64,000 nucleotides of DNA, from contig JAHQXB010000063.1 of assembly GCA_029856435.1 (NCBI GenBank), positions 7,609-71,608 of the forward strand, in the 5' to 3' direction. Source of the stretch: Candidatus Jordarchaeia archaeon (lineage in GTDB: Archaea; Asgardarchaeota; Jordiarchaeia; Jordiarchaeales; Jordiarchaeaceae). Shown piece by piece: positions 3,720-63,379 of this stretch (position 1 is its first letter; each line of letters begins with the position of its first letter). The translations under genes and the position numbers were made by a program. The notes below the pieces were generated by a model. It did not search any database, was not told the origin of the DNA, and was given only the letters and a program-made list of their open reading frames with translations.

Positions 3720-4580
3720 ATGGGAGATATAGATTATTATAAGCGTTTAACATTAGAAGCTAAACTGATTAAACAAAAGTACAAGACACTTGGAACCGGC
3801 AGAGAAGGAAAACTCTCCAAATGGTCGGGCTACATCACAGTTAGAAATCGCCCCCTTTTTGTTTCAATTCAGATACCTGAAGATTTCCCTAACAAGCCAC
3901 CCCTCATAAAGGCCAGCGGTGTTCAAACTAATTTAAATGAGGAGTTAGGCGTTCTCAAAAATTGGAGACAAGAATACAACGTAACAGATGTTATAGACGC
4001 TCTGAGAAAATATTTAGAAGAAAAAATAGATGCAGATAAGACCACACCAAGGAGGCTGGCAGAAGAACTTCAAAGAATGATAGAAAATTCACATTTACTT
4101 ATGAGTAGATCCGAGTATGTGTCCATTAGACTCACGAGGGACACCTCCAGCCTAAGAGAATACAGATTAATGGTTGTATTCCTAAAATACTCAAAACCAA
4201 GACTTAATGGAAAAGTAATAAACATTAAACTAGTTCTCCCAGAAGAATTTCCAACGGTGAAACCAAGAATAGAAATATCCAGCGGCAAAGAAGAAATAGA
4301 TTTGAATTTGGAAAAATATTTAGAGAATCTACCGCCTATGAGGAATTGGACTCCGGATAAGCACCTATTTGAAGTTGCATTATCCATTTTAGAATTTTTT
4401 AGTAATTTTGCGATGGCAGTTTGCCCAATTTGCCTAAACAAAATTACTGCACAGGAATATGATAGCGCCATCAAATGTATAAACCCCAGATGCCGGAGCT
4501 TGTATCACAAAAATTGCTTCGAAGGCTGGATAAGACAAGGATACAAAAGAGAATGTGTGTTTTGTGACACACCAGTATAA
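3720..4580 (+). CDS. Putative E3 ligase: two UBC/RWD-like modules followed by a C4HC3 RING-type finger (FANCL-like architecture)
   Basis: 286-aa ORF. Two modules carry the UBC/RWD signature (IPEDFPNKPPLIKA and LPEEFPTVKPRIEI), neither with a catalytic Cys context. The C-terminus is CPIC-x14-C-x5-C-x4-H-x2-C-x13-CVFC. Confidence 0.6.
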   Translation: MGDIDYYKRLTLEAKLIKQKYKTLGTGREGKLSKWSGYITVRNRPLFVSIQIPEDFPNKPPLIKASGVQTNLNEELGVLKNWRQEYNVTDVIDALRKYLEEKIDADKTTPRRLAEELQRMIENSHLLMSRSEYVSIRLTRDTSSLREYRLMVVFLKYSKPRLNGKVINIKLVLPEEFPTVKPRIEISSGKEEIDLNLEKYLENLPPMRNWTPDKHLFEVALSILEFFSNFAMAVCPICLNKITAQEYDSAIKCINPRCRSLYHKNCFEGWIRQGYKRECVFCDTPV

Positions 4581-4613
4581 ATCAATAAGACATCAAGATG
4601 CCAAGAGTTTAAC

Positions 4614-5765
4614 CTATTTTATGAAGTTTAACTTGAAGGTTTTAGGGGTGGCAAGATATTTTGATATTACAAATATATTTTCGCCAGACTTCAATCCAAC
4701 ATCCTTAAGCCTGAGTTCTTCCCCCAAGGGGAAGTGCTCCCTGTATGCTATTTCGGGGTCGGGAATGGCATATCTTTGGGAAATCTGTACTTTGATGTCA
4801 AAAACCGTAGCATTTGAATCCACGTTCATTTGCTGTGCTTCGTCTCCCAACCCGCAGAGCCAACAGTCAGCTCTTCGCGTCCGAGTCAAGCAATCGAGAC
4901 CCCCGCTGATTCCGTTATATCGAAACATCTCCACACTTCTAGGTAAGCCGAGCAAAACTTTTATTGCCTCTTGGGACTGAATCCCCGCTATTATGGCGTT
5001 CGTAGTTAGGATGGCTGGTAATTTTGGAGCTATCTTTTCCTGTATTTCTTTTGCGAGTTCCTCAGAAACTCCTGGAACTGAGACCAAGTTTTTAAGTTTG
5101 GCGTATTTTAGATCAAGCTCAGTCTTGTAGCCTCTTAAAAATAACTCTTCAACAATATCAAGTGTTAAACCTTTTATTCCGTACTTTTCCAACTCGTTGA
5201 ATAAATCGCGGGGCTTGCGTCTTCTCAAAGAACACCAAACTCTCTGCTTCTCTTTGGGAGGATAACACTCATAACAGGGAGTCACGTAAGGGATTATTAC
5301 ACGTACGTGACCAAAGAAACCATGTGTACCAGCATCAATAAAGGGTTTATTTAGAGACACCGCCACTGAGTTCAGATAACGGCGGCCTTCAAAATTATCC
5401 AAACTACTCAGAAAAATATCAGCTTTCCGATACACATCAATACTAATACACTCTATATTATCATAGTAAGATTCAACTTCTACGTTGGGATTCATTTCAG
5501 TCAAGTTACGTTTAGCAGCCACAACTTTGGGTGAACCGATATCCTGGTCTCTATACAACATTTGCCTACTTAGATTGGAGAGCTCCACAACATCATTATC
5601 TATTATAATTAATTTCCCAACACCCATAAGAATCAAATTTTTTGCCGATTCGCAACCCAGAGCACCCATACCCGCAATTAAAACAGTAGAATTCATCAGT
5701 TTATCCTGATTCCAAGCAACACCCATAACATTCACAAGTTTTTGTCTATGATAACGACCCTCCAT
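4614..5765 (-). CDS. Ubiquitin-activating E1-like enzyme (ThiF/MoeB/Uba family)
   Basis: 383-aa ORF. The nucleotide-binding motif is LIAGMGALGCESAKNLILMGVGKLIIIDNDVVELSNLSRQ. Two CxxC pairs are present (CYEC, CWLC). It is the last gene of the Ubl-E2-E1 string. Confidence 0.85.
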   Translation of the reverse strand: MEGRYHRQKLVNVMGVAWNQDKLMNSTVLIAGMGALGCESAKNLILMGVGKLIIIDNDVVELSNLSRQMLYRDQDIGSPKVVAAKRNLTEMNPNVEVESYYDNIECISIDVYRKADIFLSSLDNFEGRRYLNSVAVSLNKPFIDAGTHGFFGHVRVIIPYVTPCYECYPPKEKQRVWCSLRRRKPRDLFNELEKYGIKGLTLDIVEELFLRGYKTELDLKYAKLKNLVSVPGVSEELAKEIQEKIAPKLPAILTTNAIIAGIQSQEAIKVLLGLPRSVEMFRYNGISGGLDCLTRTRRADCWLCGLGDEAQQMNVDSNATVFDIKVQISQRYAIPDPEIAYREHFPLGEELRLKDVGLKSGENIFVISKYLATPKTFKLNFIK

Positions 5766-18788: not shown

Positions 18789-19307
18789 ATGGGTGAGGAA
18801 CCCCGGGTTGTTAAAATTTTGGTCACAGGACCTTACTCCTCTGGAAAAAGTACAGTGGTCAGCAAACTCTGCAAAGATGCAGTAAGCATAGATGCGCTTC
18901 AGACAACTGTTGGTTTTGATTTTGGTTCCAGATACGAGGAAGTCAATTTTTTGGATTTGAAGATTTTTGGAACGCCCGGACAAGAGAGGTTCAAATTTTT
19001 ACAAGAGATTTTAGCTAAGGGGAGTGCGGGTATTTTGTTAGTGGTGGATAGTACTTCTCCTGAAAATGTGGATTTAGCGAAAAATATTCTAGTGAGGATA
19101 AGGAAGGAGCTTTCAAAGAAGGTACCTGTTGTTATTCTTGCTAACAAACAGGATTTGGTAGGGGCCTTAAGCCCCGAGGAAGTTAGAAAAAAGATGGGAG
19201 TTTCGCGCAATGTCCCAGTCATAGGCACCGTGGCTCCAGAATCCATTGGTCTAAAAGAAGCTATTACAACTTTAATCAAACTAATGTTAAAGGCGGAAAA
19301 ACAGTAG
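18789..19307 (+). CDS. Small Ras-superfamily GTPase (MglA/Arf-like)
   Basis: G1 is GPYSSGKST, the switch I Thr lies in LQTTVGF, G3 is GTPGQERF and G4 is ANKQDL. 172 aa. Confidence 0.8.
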   Translation: MGEEPRVVKILVTGPYSSGKSTVVSKLCKDAVSIDALQTTVGFDFGSRYEEVNFLDLKIFGTPGQERFKFLQEILAKGSAGILLVVDSTSPENVDLAKNILVRIRKELSKKVPVVILANKQDLVGALSPEEVRKKMGVSRNVPVIGTVAPESIGLKEAITTLIKLMLKAEKQ

Positions 19308-19385
19308 ACGTAAATTAGAACTATTACTTAACTGTAAATTTGTTTTATGATGGTTTTTATTGTGTAATTCTACTGTTTTTGGATT

Positions 19386-20084
19386 CTATATTGCGGGTTT
19401 TCCACATTTTTTGCAGTACCTTGCTTTTGGGGGCAATCTTGATCCACAGTATATGCAGAAGGAAAATTCGTCGTCGTTTTCTGAGAATAGTGTGGTGCTC
19501 CCATAGTTTTGTGGATAGTTTGATTCGTTTTGATTCATTTCTTCAGAGTGGTTAAAAATGTCAGATATGGATTCTGTGGTGTGGCTTCCTTTTTCTTTGG
19601 GAGCGGGTGGGATTGAGTTGTGCTCGGTGTTTTCTGCATTTTCGAATAGGTCTGACGCTGTGATTGGTTTATTGCGGTAGGGGTATGGTTTGGCGGATTC
19701 TTTGGGTTCGCAGTATCGAGGCCCGAGGTTATTAATGTCCAGACCTTTTGAGTATTCTATGAATTTATTGTGCAAGTATGTTTTTAATCGAAAATAGTCT
19801 TCTTTAGATAAGCCCAGTAGTTCAAGTGCTCTATCTCTGTTTTCGCATGGTTTTTCTAAGCTGCAGCAGTAGGCTAAGCTACCATAACAGGTGGTTGCCA
19901 TTGCTTGTTCTTGTGGACTTTTAAATATGGGGGGTATGCGGGCACCACCAATTATTAGGACGCTCCCCTCTTCTACCTTTATGTCTGCGAAGCCTTCTGT
20001 TATTAGAGCTTGTAAAACTTGGTTTGCAGGGTAGACTCTGCCACCAATAACGATGAACCCCTCAGCCTTAGGCGCCCTTTCCAT
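19386..20084 (-). CDS. Hypothetical protein with a C-terminal zinc ribbon
   Basis: 232-aa ORF. The C-terminus is CIYCGSRLPPKARYCKKCG. The N-terminal domain is unrecognised. Confidence 0.4.
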   Translation of the reverse strand: MERAPKAEGFIVIGGRVYPANQVLQALITEGFADIKVEEGSVLIIGGARIPPIFKSPQEQAMATTCYGSLAYCCSLEKPCENRDRALELLGLSKEDYFRLKTYLHNKFIEYSKGLDINNLGPRYCEPKESAKPYPYRNKPITASDLFENAENTEHNSIPPAPKEKGSHTTESISDIFNHSEEMNQNESNYPQNYGSTTLFSENDDEFSFCIYCGSRLPPKARYCKKCGKPAI

Positions 20085-20256
20085 GCGTATCCATCCAGAG
20101 TTTAAAAGTATATTTGAAAACAGCTGTTTTAAGCAGTATTAACATTTTTACGCTTCAAATAGCGGTTCTTAAAATATTTTTTAATGTCCATATTAATAAT
20201 TGTAAATATTTTCCACGTATATTGGTTTAGCTAGTTTTTAATTAAAGGCTAGATGT

Positions 20257-20787
20257 TCATCCGCAAGGTGCTTCGGAGAGAATTATTTCTTCCCTTTTTT
20301 TAGATGTTTTCCTTTTTCTGACCATATTTCTGTTATTAATTTTTTCAGTTTTTCCCGATGGGCAGTTGTGCTTTTCGGGTAGTCTATGTTCGGCGCAGTA
20401 GTATCCGCCGCAGCGTTTACATTTGAAGGTTAAGGGAGTTATGGCCAAGCAGTAGTTGCAAGTTCCGCTGGCATATCCTAAGCGTGTCACCGTTATTTCT
20501 TCGAATTTCACCTTTTTGCCTAAGAGGAGGTATAGTCTTATTAAGATTTTTTTTGCTATTTCTTCGCACTCCTCTTTAGAAATACGCTCTTCTGGAATTA
20601 TTATGTTTATTTTATCTCCGTCCACGATGAGAGTGAGGTCTACAATTCGTCCATTGTGTTCTATGCTTCCCCGGGCAATATTTTGGCCAATAATACTTAA
20701 AGCCATTTCTGAGGTTAATCTCCGGAAGATTACTTGATTTAAGCCATTAATTAGCGCCTGAAAAATTTGATTACTCATACTTTTCAC
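20257..20787 (-). CDS. AN1-type zinc finger protein
   Basis: The C-terminus CNYCLAITPLTFKCKRCGGYYCAEHRLPEKHNC fits the AN1 pattern C-x2-C-x9-12-C-x2-C-x4-C-x2-H-x5-H-x-C. Confidence 0.7.
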   Translation of the reverse strand: MKSMSNQIFQALINGLNQVIFRRLTSEMALSIIGQNIARGSIEHNGRIVDLTLIVDGDKINIIIPEERISKEECEEIAKKILIRLYLLLGKKVKFEEITVTRLGYASGTCNYCLAITPLTFKCKRCGGYYCAEHRLPEKHNCPSGKTEKINNRNMVRKRKTSKKREEIILSEAPCG

Positions 20788-21046
20788 CCAAATTTAGCTC
20801 TTTGAAATAAAAGAGCCACTTAAAGTTTATTAAGTAATCCCAAAAAAATATATCCTGACGCTTACGCAAAAATAAATTCTAGCTATTGGATTTTAGTTAA
20901 ATATTTTATTTACTTGTGTTAACATATGTTTTTTCGGGGTACTAATTTACACTAGTTGGGCTTTTTTTATGCCCACATCAAAAGTTTTAATATGTTAGGT
21001 TAGTAGATATTCTGTAGAGAAAAAGTGAAAGGGGCTGTTAAAAGCG

Positions 21047-21841
21047 TTGTCCAGCAGCAATTTTGAACTAACCCTGGCACGGGAAACTCAACTAATGTAT
21101 CAGAGAACTCGCGGTTTTGAGCCAGTTAAAGGCGATCTTACCCGTTGGAGAGGCGAAATCGCCGGTAGAGGCGAATTCCGAGGACTTAAATTTGAGGTGG
21201 AAATTAGGGTTCCTCCCACATTCCCAATAGATCCTCCTCAAGTGTACATGATTTCTCCCACTGAGCACCCTAATGTAGATATTGAAACGGGAAGAGTTCA
21301 ACTGAATATTTTGGAGCACTGGAGACCGGAATACCACCTTTATCATGTAGTAAACACCTTGAAGGGTGCTTTTGCGAGGATCCCTCCACGTCCAGCAACA
21401 AGTCGAGTTAGATTTGGAAAAGAGGCTCCTAAGGTGACTTTAACACTGGTTGGGAAAGAGGATAAGACCGAGGAGGGAGAAGTAACTAGCTCTGAGGCCG
21501 CTTCAGAATTATCTGAGGGTGAGTCGGAAATCCAGAAACTTAGACGCTTGCTCCAGGAACGCGAGGAAGAAATAGCCATGCTACGTGGCAGATTGTCCGC
21601 TCACAATGTACCAGAAGTGGCTCAGGAGAGCGAGTCTACGTCTCTTCCTGGGGATCCCGCGTTTCGTGAAGTTCTGGATGTTGAGAGCGAGAAAATAGCT
21701 ATTGAGGACTTGATCAGGACACTTGAAGAAAAATTTGAAGCGGGGGAAGTAGGTCCAACCGAGTATGCTAAGCTATATAAGAGGTATAAGAAACAGCTGT
21801 ACATAGTAAACAAGAGACTGGAGAAGCTTTCGGCTAGGTAA
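21047..21841 (+). CDS. ESCRT-I Vps23/Tsg101-like protein: UEV (catalytically inactive E2 variant) domain plus coiled-coil stalk
   Basis: TTG start. A UBC fold with HPNV, but the active-site Cys position reads GRVQLNIL (no Cys). An acidic linker and a long coiled coil follow. It sits directly upstream of the Vps28-like gene. Confidence 0.7.
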   Translation: MSSSNFELTLARETQLMYQRTRGFEPVKGDLTRWRGEIAGRGEFRGLKFEVEIRVPPTFPIDPPQVYMISPTEHPNVDIETGRVQLNILEHWRPEYHLYHVVNTLKGAFARIPPRPATSRVRFGKEAPKVTLTLVGKEDKTEEGEVTSSEAASELSEGESEIQKLRRLLQEREEEIAMLRGRLSAHNVPEVAQESESTSLPGDPAFREVLDVESEKIAIEDLIRTLEEKFEAGEVGPTEYAKLYKRYKKQLYIVNKRLEKLSAR

Positions 21842-21864
21842 TCCGCGAGGATGGAGGATAAAAA

Positions 21865-22533
21865 ATGAAGACTGCAGAAAAATCTAGAGGGAAACAATCG
21901 AAGAACGATTTGGAAGAACATTTGGAATTAGAGGCGGAACTGTACTCTTGCATAGCTACTCTGGATATGCTGGGTAAAAATTATGATAATGGTTTAATTG
22001 ATGCCTCCACCTACAGCCGCCAAATGAGAGCCTACATCCAAAAAATTATCGACGTACGTAAAAAATTGGAAGAAAAAGGTTTTGATCTAACCAAGTTTAT
22101 AGAGCAAGAAAAAATCATAGAAAATTATCCCAACGCTGCGGTGAAGCTAAGAATTGTTAAATCCGATGAAACTGTTATGAGACCAGAGGAAGAGATACCC
22201 TTAGAAATAGTTAAGTTCTCACCAGCAAAATTAGCCACGGAAACAGCTGACCTTGTAACAAACTTCATCACATTAATAGACTGCGTCCAATTAGGAGACT
22301 ATGCCCGGGTGGATAACATAGTTCCCATAATGGATGACATAATACTCCTCATGGAAAACTACACAGGACTGAATGACAAGAACTACTGGGTTTACAAAGA
22401 GATAACCGCTTGGCGTGACAAACTCAAAAACGAGCCTCCAGACCTTGTGATTGACTCCGAAGACGCAAAAAAAATAGAGTACGACGCAGTAAGGTGGTTT
22501 AAAGACTTCCGCCAAAGAATAAGACAATTATAG
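21865..22533 (+). CDS. ESCRT-I Vps28-like protein
   Basis: The N-terminal region AELYSCIATLDMLGKNYDNGLIDASTYSRQMRAYIQK resembles the Vps28 core motif (LYAII.T.E.LEKAY.RD.I...EY) recalled from eukaryotic Vps28. The C-terminal half is helical. Confidence 0.65.
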   Translation: MKTAEKSRGKQSKNDLEEHLELEAELYSCIATLDMLGKNYDNGLIDASTYSRQMRAYIQKIIDVRKKLEEKGFDLTKFIEQEKIIENYPNAAVKLRIVKSDETVMRPEEEIPLEIVKFSPAKLATETADLVTNFITLIDCVQLGDYARVDNIVPIMDDIILLMENYTGLNDKNYWVYKEITAWRDKLKNEPPDLVIDSEDAKKIEYDAVRWFKDFRQRIRQL

Positions 22534-22551
22534 AAGAGGAGCCATAAAAAG

Positions 22552-23286
22552 ATGGGAATACGGGAATTACGCGACCGGATGGAGAAAAAAAAGTACATGC
22601 AAAAAAAGGCCACAGAATTCAAATTGGAGGAAATAAAAAGCGATTTGGAAACCGCAACAGAAACAAAAGAGAAACTGGAAGAAATCGCTAGAAAATATGG
22701 AGTCATCATAGCTACCAGTCCCAAACTACAGGATGAAATTGAAAGAATCAGAAAACAGTACGGAATACCCAACGAATCCATAATCACCCAAATAATTTCC
22801 GAAGAAGAAGTACTTAAAAGGGGAACAATGGGAATAGGAACAAAAATCGACCACGAAAAACTGGGAATGCTACTCTATCAAAGAGCCCTGCTTAAACGCA
22901 AAGAAAACGGAGGAATAATGACCTTCGCAGAAGCCTACCTACTAACAAACACGGGGAAACTCGCCCAAAAACTTGAAAACAAAGACATTGAAAAAGCAGT
23001 AAAAATACTTGAGAAAAACAAACTCATACCAGGAATACGCCAACTGAAAAGCGGAGTAAAAATAATAAGCTTCTTCCCCATAGAACTAACCGACGACCAA
23101 AACGAAGTACTAAGCATAGCAAGTAGAAGCGGAAGCGTCACCCTAGAAGAAATAATGCTAAAAACAGGTTGGACAAAAACCCGCGCACAAAGCGTACTAC
23201 AAACCCTAGAAGAAGAAGGAATAACCAGAAAAGACAAAAGCTACGCCCACGGAGAAAAATACTACTTCCCAGGATTCGTGCACTAA
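22552..23286 (+). CDS. ESCRT-II EAP30-family (Vps22/Vps36-like) protein with tandem winged helices
   Basis: An N-terminal basic helix, then GGIMTFAEAYLL... and a second wH (SGSVTLEEIMLKTGWTKTRAQSVLQTLEEEGI). It lies in a string with the Vps23-like and Vps28-like genes. Confidence 0.6.
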   Translation: MGIRELRDRMEKKKYMQKKATEFKLEEIKSDLETATETKEKLEEIARKYGVIIATSPKLQDEIERIRKQYGIPNESIITQIISEEEVLKRGTMGIGTKIDHEKLGMLLYQRALLKRKENGGIMTFAEAYLLTNTGKLAQKLENKDIEKAVKILEKNKLIPGIRQLKSGVKIISFFPIELTDDQNEVLSIASRSGSVTLEEIMLKTGWTKTRAQSVLQTLEEEGITRKDKSYAHGEKYYFPGFVH

Positions 23287-28772: not shown

Positions 28773-28905
28773 ATTCTCTCATTTTTTTCATTAATTGATA
28801 GAAGAGATTTTACACCCTCCTCAACTTTAAGTCGGGACTTTATAGCCAATGATTCTGTAATTCCGTACCTCTATTTTTGGAGGGTTAAATAGAGAAAAGG
28901 AGGGA

Positions 28906-29112
28906 TGGTGCGGAGGACGAGATGTGTTCAGGGGGTAGCAGGTACCACCGCCTTTGAACTCGTGTAGGCCTATGTGAACTCCCAGATGACTGGGGGTTTC
29001 TACGCCACAGGAGCTCTGATATGCGAGTGATTTGAACTCGAAAACCTCAGTCCTGCTCCATGCCAGTCGAGCCCTTGAGGGGCGACATTTGACCTGGCTC
29101 GGAAACCTCCGC
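28906..29112 (-). tRNA. tRNA-Leu(GAG) with four introns (D-loop, 37/38, variable arm, T-loop) and an encoded CCA
   Basis: Hand-folded cloverleaf elements:
- acceptor GCGGAGG (29112-29106) / CCTCCGC (28916-28910), then A and CCA;
- D arm TCC-GAGCCAGGTCAAA...GGA;
- anticodon stem CAGGA/TCCTG with loop CTGAGG..C (anticodon 29048-29046);
- variable arm GGC-GTAG-GCC;
- T arm ACGAG-TTCAAA..T-CTCGT.
Intervening segments: 29087-29060 (28 nt), 29044-29014 (31 nt), 28999-28970 (30 nt) and 28952-28923 (30 nt). The 88-nt mature tRNA plus 119 nt of introns gives the observed 207 nt. Confidence 0.85.
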
Positions 29113-29180
29113 ACATATACATATATTGGCAAAATAGGATTACACTAAACCAGTTTTTATAAGTTTCTATGGTAGGTAAC

Positions 29181-29287
29181 GGTGATGTAGATTAGTCCTA
29201 TTCTATCCCTCATTTCGAGGCTCTAAATTATAAAAGAAGCCCTATGAAAGCTTCCTTCGAAGGTGAAACCGAATGAATCTACACCGC
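29181..29287. mobile_element. Possible 107-bp MITE-like element or structured RNA, flanked by a 10-bp direct repeat
   Basis: Direct repeat ggtaggtaac at 29171-29180 and 29288-29297. Just inside lie imperfect inverted ends, ggtgatgtagatt (29181-29193) and aatctacaccgc (29276-29287), with 11 of 12 positions pairing. An internal palindrome ccttcgaagg is present. Confidence 0.3.
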
Positions 29288-29488
29288 GGTAGGTAACAAT
29301 ATAATGCAATATGATTATATTTTTCGTGTTTAAAAAAGGGGATAGCATACTATTAAAAAATTTTTTGGGACTCTATTTTTAAAGAGTAAGGTTCAAAAGG
29401 AAAACGTATAAAAATTATAATGCGTATCCATTTTGTGTGGTAGAACTTTGTCTGAGCCCAAAAATTTATTTAGGATATTTGGAATAGT

Positions 29489-29657
29489 GCAGGGATTTCC
29501 GAGTGGTCAATACCCAGCAGTGGTTGGCTACAGGAGCTGGGCTTAGGACCCAGTGGCGTAGTGGTGTCGGCCTGTTTTGGTGGCGCCGCGTAAGCCTTCG
29601 CGTGTTCGAAAAGAAGCATCAGATTGATGCAGCTCGATAGTCACGCTCCCTGCACCA
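29489..29657 (+). tRNA. tRNA-Leu(UAG) with three introns (D-loop, variable arm, T-loop) and an encoded CCA
   Basis: Hand-folded cloverleaf elements:
- acceptor GCAGGGA (29489-29495) / TCCCTGC (29647-29653), then A and CCA;
- intact anticodon arm CTGGG-CTTAGGA-CCCAG (anticodon 29544-29546);
- T arm GCGTG-TTCGAA[30 nt, 29611-29640]T-CACGC.
Extra sequence: ~19 nt in the D-loop (within 29511-29532) and ~32 nt in the variable arm (about 29562-29593). Confidence 0.85.
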
Positions 29658-63195: not shown

Positions 63196-63379
63196 TGGTC
63201 CCGCAGGCCGGACTTTCAAATATAGTGTATAGTGCACTATAAACTTTGAACCAGCGACGTTGGGGCTGAGTACTATGCGCACCCAGTTATCCCGGTGTCT
63301 GAGTGCCTACTGGGGTAAGCCACACTTAACGAGTGCAGCTCTACAGCCGGGCACTCTAGCCAGTCTGAGTTACTGCGGG
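63196..63379 (-). tRNA. tRNA-Tyr(GUA) with three introns (37/38, variable loop, T-loop), a C1-G72 pair and an encoded CCA
   Basis: Hand-folded cloverleaf elements:
- acceptor CCCGCAG (63379-63373) / CTGCGGG (63206-63200), then A and CCA;
- D arm ACTC-AGACTGGCTA-GAGT;
- anticodon stem CCCGG/CCGGG with loop CTGTAGA (anticodon 63344-63342);
- variable loop AT..GTC;
- T arm GCTGG-TTCAAA..T-CCGGC.
Introns: 63339-63296 (44 nt), 63288-63259 (30 nt) and 63244-63213 (32 nt). The spliced 3' half (AUGUC GCUGG UUCAAAU CCGGC) matches M. jannaschii tRNA-Tyr as I recall it. Confidence 0.9.

Follow-up and report, generated by a model that had tools for sequence, protein, structure and literature searches.

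The tRNA-Leu(GAG) gene and its predicted spliced product

The stretch of DNA analysed here, which comprises 64 kb and is called the window in the following, carries on its minus strand a tRNA-Leu(GAG) gene of 207 nt. The gene runs from position 29112 (G1) down to position 28906 (A76 of the encoded CCA) and, read in this direction, starts with GCGGAGG and ends with CCUCCGC-A-CCA. It is composed of five exons of 25, 15, 14, 16 and 18 nt, which add up to 88 nt including the encoded CCA, and of four introns of 28, 31, 30 and 30 nt, which interrupt the D arm, the 37/38 site, the variable loop and the T loop, respectively. Exon 1 (29088..29112, minus strand like all features of the gene; gene positions 1-25; GCGGAGGUUUCCGAGCCAGGUCAAA) contains the 5' strand of the acceptor stem, U8-U9, the 5' strand of the D stem and the D loop. 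It is followed by intron 1 (29060..29087), which interrupts the gene at the boundary between the D loop and the 3' strand of the D stem, at about 22/23. Exon 2 (29045..29059; gene positions 54-68) comprises the 3' strand of the D stem, G26, the 5' strand of the anticodon stem and the anticodon loop up to G37, and intron 2 (29014..29044) occupies the canonical 37/38 site. Exon 3 (29000..29013; gene positions 100-113; CUCCUGUGGCGUAG) continues with C38, the 3' strand of the anticodon stem and the 5' half of the variable arm, the loop of which is interrupted by intron 3 (28970..28999; GUAG|...|GCC). The 3' half of the variable arm, the 5' strand of the T stem and the T loop up to A58 belong to exon 4 (28954..28969; gene positions 144-159; GCCUACACGAGUUCAA). 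Finally, intron 4 (28924..28953) lies in the T loop, in the BHB register at 58/59, and exon 5 (28906..28923; gene positions 190-207) provides A59-U60, the 3' strands of the T stem and the acceptor stem, A73 and CCA. In total, 119 of the 207 nt (57.5%) are intronic, in line with an earlier note on this DNA, according to which more than half of the gene is intron.

The flanking regions contain candidate expression signals. A putative BRE/TATA element (AGAAAC-TTATAAAA; 29155..29168, minus strand) is located 43-56 nt upstream of G1, with its TATA-like part at -50 to -43, and about 60 nt upstream of the gene are kept across the orthologues, as judged from the alignment and the upstream flanks. On the other side, a T-rich 3' trailer (UCCCUCCUUUUCUCUAUUU; 28880..28905, minus strand) can be read from the sequence. 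This trailer is likely to be an archaeal oligo-T terminator, and similar T-tracts are present 3' of the gene in two relatives (L002 and L004).

When gene positions 26-53, 69-99, 114-143 and 161-190 are excised, the remaining 88 nt are called tRNA-Leu(gag) by ARAGORN, which agrees with the 88-nt mature class II tRNA with CCA that had been described in the earlier note after removal of segments of 28, 31, 30 and 30 nt. In the spliced product, an acceptor stem of 7 bp is followed by a D stem of 3 bp with a large D loop, the anticodon loop CUGAGGC, the T arm ACGAG-UUCAAAU-CUCGU, the discriminator base A73 and an encoded CCA. Removal of the four segments restores a canonical cloverleaf in which 23 of 23 stem pairs hold. 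Moreover, the features of a class II tRNA-Leu are present, namely a variable region of 14 nt (UGGCGUAGGCCUAC), A73, the anticodon GAG, G37 and the 3-bp D stem. As deduced from the DNA, the predicted product is thus a complete class II tRNA-Leu(GAG).

The gene is invisible to standard tools as long as the introns are in place, as had been anticipated. ARAGORN reported zero tRNAs in the full 64-kb window and, with the intron option switched on, zero tRNAs in the isolated unspliced gene. Likewise, the Rfam tRNA model gave zero matches to the unspliced gene, in the region and in the whole window, either at the gathering threshold or at relaxed E-values. The score of this model in homologous genes falls with the number of introns, from 54.8 bits (no intron, L003) over 48.2 bits (one intron, L006) to 41.8 bits (two introns, L010), the latter two genes being recognised with their introns in place; no match was obtained with the two-intron gene L005 or with the four-intron genes. 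Self-splicing group I or group II introns were also considered and rejected: the introns are only 28-31 nt long, the ribozyme cores comprise hundreds of nucleotides, and the region has no Rfam match at E <= 10 beyond chance hits. The ARAGORN call on the hand-spliced DNA has to be weighed with care. At a 184-nt tRNA-Tyr locus in the same window, brute-force removal of BHB-compatible segments generated many mutually exclusive ARAGORN tRNA calls. Because ARAGORN is permissive at this locus, its call on hand-spliced DNA is weak when taken alone, and the case for the gene therefore rests on comparative data.

Orthologues and alleles lacking single introns

Homologues were collected by pattern scans, which yielded four matches in GTDB species genomes and seven in JGI metagenomes and were limited by the pattern used; most orthologues were reached via the syntenic RIO kinase gene. 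The tRNA gene is flanked by a gene for a protein of about 1000 amino acids on one side and the RIO kinase gene on the other in eight distinct genomes or contigs. Removal of three, four or five introns leaves an 88-nt tRNA-Leu(gag) in all eight distinct orthologues, the gene in the window included. The same four intron sites (D arm, 37/38, variable loop and T loop) are occupied in the window, L002 (a MAG named Ca. Freyarchaeota), L004 (an archaeal MAG with the same sequence as L009) and L018, and the genes in L002 and L004 are near-identical to that in the window. Five introns are found in L016 (= L017) and L019, due to an extra D-loop intron after position 17. The more distant L021 and L022 have two introns, one at a different D-loop site and one at the same variable-loop site. 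All eight Jordarchaeaceae-like orthologues, and likewise the Baldrarchaeota-like homologues, have a D-arm intron near the site of intron 1.

Two orthologues with three introns define individual junctions. L013 (= L014; Ca. Jordarchaeum sp.) is devoid of exactly the variable-loop intron (…UGGCGUAGGCCUUC…); the junction reads TGGCGTAGGCCTTC, and the variable region has the normal length of 14 nt. L015 is devoid of exactly the 37/38 intron (…CUGAGGCUUCUG…), and here the junction reads CTGAGGCTTCTG. With these alleles, each lacking a single intron, the junctions can be defined without recourse to a motif model, and those in the variable loop and at 37/38 fall precisely where the earlier note had placed them.

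Homologues with fewer introns give a consistent picture. The Baldrarchaeota-like genes L005 and L010 contain introns in the D arm and at 37/38, L006 contains only the 37/38 intron and L003 is intronless. In a MAFFT alignment made without hints, clean gaps in the homologues that lack these introns coincide exactly with the variable-loop and T-loop segments, and the variable arm of the intronless homologues reads TGGCGTAGGCC. The spliced product aligns without gaps to the spliced products of L006 and L010 (83.5-85% identity) and with one gap to the intronless L003 (80.5% identity). In five aligned spliced sequences, the cloverleaf is 100% paired, and seven pairs have changed on both sides. Every stem change in the lineage of the window (5:68 A-U, 10:25 U-A and three T-stem pairs) is compensatory and affects a helix that spans an intron. 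On four of five measures, 0 of 500 shuffles reached the observed value, and slid controls were 41-55% paired.

Furthermore, exons and introns evolve in different ways. Among the window, L002 and L004, there are no variable sites in the 88 exon positions and 22 in the 122 intron positions (Fisher p = 3e-6). The variable intron sites of these three genes are spread over the intron interiors, and none of them affects a splice-adjacent nucleotide.

These observations bear on the question of whether the region is a decaying tRNA pseudogene with insertions, or whether it codes for a protein. Such a reading would fit the silence of the standard tRNA finders, and a 101-aa ORF with a TTG start codon (28827-29132, minus strand) indeed spans the region and overlaps the tRNA gene. 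However, the exons are invariant and the introns drift, the stem changes are compensatory, and the BHB register is kept at every junction across eight genomes. Moreover, the upstream region is conserved, CCA is encoded, and in a related complete genome the one Leu(GAG) gene that is listed is interrupted as well. The ORF had been regarded as spurious before, and we come to the same view: it starts with TTG, it has no match in Pfam, and 1-nt indels in the introns of the orthologues would shift its frame. Therefore, we consider a pseudogene or a protein-coding region to be extremely improbable.

Splice motifs and a proposed processing pathway

Folding of the individual junctions by minimum free energy recovered the intron hairpins and the 5' bulge of intron 1, and a full BHB at none of the four junctions. 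For this reason, the BHB motif was scored explicitly, as a 4-bp central helix H with a 3-nt bulge 3' of each strand and the cut after nucleotide 2 of the bulge. The scoring of each junction, which had been recommended earlier, gave four of four pairs for introns 1, 2 and 4 and three of four pairs for intron 3. A 4-bp central helix with cuts 2 nt 3' of both strands is thus found at introns 1, 2 and 4 in the present gene and at intron 3 via the orthologues. In 5000 shuffles of the intron interiors, not a single one had a perfect 4-bp helix in register at three or more of the four junctions, the observed number being three.

The motif of intron 1 in the D arm is of the HBh' type, with the helix GUCA/UGGC, the bulges AA|U and AU|G, an h' helix of 4 bp and no h helix. 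At 37/38, intron 2 has an hBHBh' motif with the helix CUGA/UCAG and the bulges GG|U and AG|C; here, the anticodon stem serves as a 6-bp h helix and h' consists of 1 bp followed by a hairpin. The helix CTGA/TCAG with junctions 2 nt downstream on each strand had already been recognised in the earlier note, and all four pairs are in register. Intron 4 in the T loop is also of the hBHBh' type (helix GUUC/GAAC, bulges AA|A and AC|A, h of 2 bp, h' of 2 bp followed by a hairpin). Both of its flanking helices have at least 2 bp, as opposed to intron 1 (h 0) and intron 3 (h 1, h' 0). The presence of the T-loop intron was confirmed, and only its position required a correction: instead of a cut after position 59 (28923-28952 in the window), the BHB register places the cuts one nucleotide further 5', at 58/59 (gene 159|160 and 189|190). 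The T-loop junction is unambiguous in L013, L015 and L018, all of which are consistent with 58/59, and the spliced product is the same in both cases.

Intron 2 contains an inner hairpin (CGAGU-UCAAAUC-ACUCG; window 29040-29024) that had been described as T-arm-like. The hairpin is indeed present; its stem is kept in one of the two close relatives and re-registered in the other, and the loop TTCAAATC is found only in the present genome, as compared to L002 and L004. An origin of the introns by internal duplication was considered and rejected: repeats such as AGUUCAxAU reflect the fact that D and T loops resemble each other in general, and the T-arm copy found in intron 2 is conserved in neither L002 nor L004. 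An inspection of the introns by eye for C/D-box guide RNAs revealed no C box (RUGAUGA).

The relaxed motif of intron 3 deserves closer attention. In the present gene, the helix GCGU/ACAU has three of four pairs (C·A mismatch), the bulges are AG|A and AG|G, h has 1 bp and h' is absent. By minimum free energy, this segment folds into an uninterrupted hairpin that stacks on the variable stem, and among the three closest genomes intron 3 is the most conserved intron, with two variable sites that are both located in the loop. One could thus assume that there are only three true introns and that the 30-nt segment is retained as a hairpin in a long variable arm, giving a variable region of about 44 nt. 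However, the close relative L013 lacks exactly this segment and has a normal variable region, and the length (19-32 nt) and sequence of the segment vary widely between orthologues. Moreover, the central helix has four of four pairs in L015, L016, L019, L021 and L022, in the same register: it reads GCGU/ACGU in L015, L019 and L022, GCGC/GCGU in L016, where a U-A pair has been replaced by C-G in a compensatory manner, and GCGU/GCGU in L021 and also in the neighbouring Leu(UAG) gene. In a Freyarchaeia genome, the BHB model of tRNAscan-SE calls a 31-nt intron that lies between those at 37/38 and in the T loop, a position that fits the variable arm. We therefore regard retention of the segment as very unlikely, and the mismatch is, as far as the sequences tell, confined to the present sub-lineage.

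Intron 3 as a true intron could also have other boundaries. A 31-nt segment (gene 111-141) with the BHB helix GUGG/UCAC (outer helix 2 bp, inner helix 1 bp) is the sole candidate with a strict 4-bp helix near the site in the present genome, and its removal would leave a variable region of 13 nt (UGGCGAGGCCUAC) and a tRNA of 87 nt. However, this helix consumes the anticodon-stem nucleotides 41-43, and such candidates are at noise level, with 286 perfect-helix pairs present in the 207 nt. Furthermore, all homologues and the allele that lacks this intron show UGGCG(U/C)AGGCC, and the helices of the orthologues are fully paired in the register of the earlier note, which makes the shifted boundaries very improbable as well. 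The 30-nt intron with the boundaries given above remains the preferred reading.

Taken together, the motifs support the view that each of the four segments behaves like an endonuclease-type (BHB) tRNA intron. The 88-nt product, the comparison of orthologues and the BHB motifs all agree with the original proposal of a tRNA-Leu(GAG) gene with four introns, and we estimate the probability that the locus is a functional four-intron tRNA-Leu(GAG) gene of a Freyarchaeia/Jordarchaeia Asgard archaeon at roughly 0.93.

Based on these features, the following processing pathway can be proposed. A precursor of at least 207 nt would be transcribed from the TATA-like element about 45-50 nt upstream, and its ends would be trimmed by RNase P and a 3' processing activity. 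Each exon-intron boundary is predicted to fold as a BHB or relaxed BHB, with a 4-bp helix and 3-nt bulges on opposite strands, and the archaeal tRNA splicing endonuclease (EndA) would cut after nucleotide 2 of each bulge. An RtcB-type ligase would join the five exons, and the introns would probably be circularised. Finally, the 88-nt product would refold into the class II cloverleaf and decode CUC/CUU. The BHB conformers of introns 1, 3 and 4 would borrow nucleotides of the D loop, the variable stem and the T stem and loop, respectively, so that the precursor would have to hold a fold other than the cloverleaf until it is spliced. Intron 3 (GUUC-ACA) and intron 4 (GAAC-ACA) could form a competing BHB-like pairing with an outer helix of 5 bp, which, if cut, could in principle delete exon 4 by mis-splicing. 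Thus, the order of splicing or the kinetics of folding may matter. The two relaxed motifs, the HBh' motif of intron 1 and the mismatched motif of intron 3, imply an endonuclease of broad specificity. Relaxed BHB forms are cut by (αβ)2- and ε2-type endonucleases (PMC4033280). Neither EndA nor RtcB is among the annotated ORFs at 14.6-32.8 kb of the window; the gene list of Atabeyarchaeia-1, a related Asgard genome, includes RtcB as well as at least two endonuclease genes (K01170).

Asgard host, known multi-intron tRNAs and neighbouring genes

The window DNA is 88-95% identical to, and syntenic with, L002 (Ca. Freyarchaeota) and L004. The RIO kinase encoded in the window is about 80% identical to proteins named Ca. 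Jordarchaeum or Jordarchaeaceae and 57% identical to a Ca. Freyarchaeota protein; Freyarchaeia and Jordarchaeia are two names for one group. Moreover, the window encodes an ESCRT-I/II cluster (Vps23/UEV-like, Vps28, EAP30) and a Ras/Arf-family GTPase, which we take to be typical Asgard signature proteins. The ESCRT cluster, the GTPase and the names of the relatives identify the host as an Asgard archaeon and not as a member of the Thermoproteales. Thus, the earlier statement that genes with several introns are known mainly from Thermoproteales and a few other lineages has to be extended, the present host belonging to the Asgard Freyarchaeia (= Jordarchaeia).

For archaeal tRNA genes, a maximum of three introns has been given (PMC4033280; tRNAscan-SE 2.0, PMC8450103). 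Four introns had been rated at the high end in the earlier note, and this number is indeed above the 'up to three' of the reviews; there is, however, a precedent. In the complete genomes of Atabeyarchaeia and Freyarchaeia, 92-95% of the tRNA genes contain introns, and the columns of Supplementary Data 4 of the study extend to 'intron 4' (Valentin-Alvarado et al. 2024, PMC11291895). This table contains the Freyarchaeia Leu(GAG) gene (tRNA #24), which is the only Leu(GAG) gene listed in the complete genome and has a length of 194 nt, a tRNAscan-SE score of 58.7 bits and three introns of 32, 31 and 30 nt, or four introns according to R2DT. Four introns are also listed for Arg(TCT) and Ile2(CAT) of Freyarchaeia and, by R2DT, for Trp(CCA) of Atabeyarchaeia-2 (PMC11291895). 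A four-intron Freyarchaeia Leu(GAG) gene was thus already tabulated in 2024, and the present gene extends this earlier work. Our literature search found no paper that treats four introns in the main text or reports five. Together with its relatives, the present gene shows that Asgard archaea regularly exceed the three-intron maximum that is still given in reviews and in the tRNAscan-SE 2.0 paper.

The Leu(GAG) gene of Freyarchaeum deiterrae (PMC11291895) is the same isoacceptor from the same archaeal class, has four introns like the gene described here and is adjoined by a divergent Leu(TAG) gene, as in the window. Exons 3, 4 and 5, as deduced from the published coordinates, have 14, 16 and 18 nt and fit the present gene. 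The two genes differ in length (194 versus 207 nt) and belong to different genus-level lineages. The fourth intron of F. deiterrae is given without coordinates; by subtraction, it would have about 13 nt if it is located in the D arm, as compared to 28 nt here. An intron-by-intron orthology of the two genes would fit these coordinates.

Short BHB or relaxed introns in the D arm, the variable region and the T loop are also known from the multi-intron tRNAs of Thermoproteales, where they are removed by a broad-specificity endonuclease and where generic finders miss the genes (Sugahara et al. 2008; PMC4033280; PMC8450103). However, the stated maximum in Thermoproteales is three introns, as opposed to four here and five in two orthologues, and the present host is an Asgard archaeon and not a member of the Thermoproteota. 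Among eukaryotes, ectopic multi-intron nuclear tRNA genes of the red alga Cyanidioschyzon merolae contain as many as three introns of the BHB type, which interrupt the D arm, the 37/38 site and the T loop, and experiments on three-intron tRNAs have shown that the introns are removed in an order that depends on BHB stability (PMC3728597). This system may serve as a model for the four introns described here, although the C. merolae genes are eukaryotic and nuclear, some of them are permuted, and three introns are the maximum. Split and permuted tRNAs, for instance of Nanoarchaeum equitans and Caldivirga maquilingensis, are assembled via BHB motifs, for which the same endonuclease and ligase are employed, and their break points coincide with common intron positions (PMC3218864; PMC4033280). 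In contrast, the five exons of the present gene are colinear in one 207-nt locus, and neither trans-splicing nor permutation is needed.

In addition to the known gene, an ad hoc acceptor-stem search of the window brought up two further hidden tRNA genes. One of them is a tRNA-Leu(UAG) gene of 169 nt (29489-29657, plus strand) with three introns, which is conserved in the relatives; L013 is devoid of its D-loop intron. The other one is a candidate tRNA-Tyr(GUA) gene of 184 nt (63379-63196, minus strand) with about three insertions, two junctions being tentative. The candidate has a C1-G72 pair, which in archaea is the identity pair of tRNA-Tyr. Each of the three tRNA genes in the 64-kb window was missed by both ARAGORN and the Rfam tRNA model. 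Since the finders are blank on all three tRNAs, annotations and completeness estimates of such genomes will under-count tRNAs, and spurious ORFs may be reported instead.

The intron content of the Leu genes appears to be in motion. The fifth intron, in the D loop, is present in two independent metagenomic lineages (L016/L017 and L019). The T-loop intron of the Leu(UAG) gene in the window is 77% identical to that of the Leu(GAG) gene of L019, whereas the T-loop introns of the Leu(GAG) orthologues are 39% identical to each other. This suggests that the neighbouring Leu(GAG) and Leu(UAG) genes may have swapped T-loop introns. We lean slightly towards the view that the Leu(GAG) locus is the most intron-dense tRNA gene family on record and is evolving now, with three, four or five introns in syntenic orthologues whose exons differ little, individual absences and exchange. 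If this is true, the locus would be a natural series for studying the gain, loss and movement of BHB introns and the order in which they are removed by an Asgard endonuclease. Among known organisms, eukaryotes have their closest relatives in the Asgard archaea, with which they share the tRNA splicing endonuclease. Near-identical genes with three to five introns offer a tractable system in which to study how introns are gained and lost, which substrates are tolerated and in which order splicing proceeds. Between the two Leu genes, the present genome, and only this one, carries a 117-bp MITE-like insertion with a target duplication of 10 bp.

Introns of the tRNA-Leu(GAG) gene in the window and in relatives

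Among the relatives compared with the window, orthologues of the four-intron tRNA-Leu(GAG) gene have been found that carry five introns. One of them is the 220-nt gene on contig L016 (2515-2296, minus strand), which is identical in L017, and the other is the 219-nt gene on L019 (1607-1389, minus strand). In both cases, introns account for 60% of the gene. Besides introns in the D arm, at 37/38, in the variable loop and in the T loop, each gene has an extra intron of 26 nt that interrupts the D loop behind position 17 and shows the helix CGAG/CUCG in perfect register. Moreover, L016/L017 and L019 derive from separate metagenomes and their sequences differ. In the literature, no description of a tRNA gene with five introns was found.

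The introns of the window gene contain further elements. The motif GUUC-ACA of the variable-loop intron (intron 3; window 28973-28979) could pair with GAAC-ACA of the T-loop intron (intron 4; 28923-28929), which corresponds to positions 134-140 and 184-190 in gene numbering. This competing pairing resembles a bulge-helix-bulge splice motif and has an outer helix of 5 bp. If it were cut, exon 4, which lies between the two introns, would be deleted. The GUUC-ACA element shows no variation across the three closest genomes. The decoy T-arm-like hairpin that the earlier note described in the 37/38 intron (CGAGU-UCAAAUC-ACUCG; window 29024-29040, minus strand) is indeed present, and 12 nt of it, CGAGUUCAAAUC, are a copy of sequence in the T arm after splicing. 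The two relatives closest to the window, L002 and L004, have the stem of the hairpin kept or re-registered and lack the T-loop-like sequence. Thus, the likeness to a T arm is specific to the window genome.

The divergent tRNA-Leu(UAG) gene

A second hidden tRNA gene, encoding tRNA-Leu(UAG), is located at 29489-29657 on the plus strand, divergent to the tRNA-Leu(GAG) gene and separated from it by about 375 nt. The gene is 169 nt long and has three introns, which are situated in the D loop (21 nt, helix GGUC/GGCU), the variable loop (32 nt, helix GCGU/GCGU) and the T loop (30 nt, 29611-29640). The unspliced gene was called neither by ARAGORN nor by the Rfam tRNA model; splicing leaves 86 nt that ARAGORN identifies as tRNA-Leu(tag). 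The gene is kept in L002, L004, L016, L018 and L020; in L013 its D-loop intron is missing.

In the T loop, the intron of tRNA-Leu(UAG) in the window shares 77% identity with that of the L019 tRNA-Leu(GAG) gene (within 1389-1607), whereas it is only 39% identical to its counterpart in the tRNA-Leu(GAG) gene of the window itself. Furthermore, the T-loop introns of tRNA-Leu(GAG) in L013 and tRNA-Leu(UAG) in L016 are 69% identical. The sequence comparison suggests that intron exchange or gene conversion may have taken place between the two adjacent Leu genes.

A tRNA-Tyr(GUA) candidate

A third hidden tRNA, a 184-nt tRNA-Tyr(GUA) candidate, lies at 63196-63379 on the minus strand and possesses a C1-G72 pair, A73 and CCA. 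It carries about three insertions, at 37/38 (about 44 nt), in the variable loop (about 30 nt) and in the T loop (32 nt), the last with the perfect helix UUCA/UGAA. When spliced by hand, it yields tRNA-Tyr(gta) of 78 nt. Of its junctions, the first two are tentative, since each has just three of four helix pairs and was read in the window alone.

Insertions and neighbouring genes

Immediately upstream of the putative tRNA-Leu(GAG) promoter, the window contains a 117-bp insertion (29171-29287) for which the syntenic L002 and L004 have no equivalent. It is flanked by the 10-bp direct repeat GGTAGGTAAC, whose second copy is located at 29288-29297, and occurs once in the window. Its terminal inverted repeats are imperfect, and it forms a long hairpin when folded. 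The insertion looks like a MITE with its target-site duplication.

A gene cluster for eukaryotic signature proteins (18789-23286, plus strand) encodes a Ras/Arf-family small GTPase (18789-19307), a UEV/Vps23-like protein (21047-21841), Vps28 (21865-22533) and an EAP30/Vps22-36-like protein (22552-23286), and from this cluster the window is read as belonging to an Asgard archaeon. One relative, L019, carries an IS605 OrfB/Cas12f-like TnpB gene (4140-5261, minus strand) between the eIF-1A and NMD3 genes, which interrupts an otherwise conserved neighbourhood.
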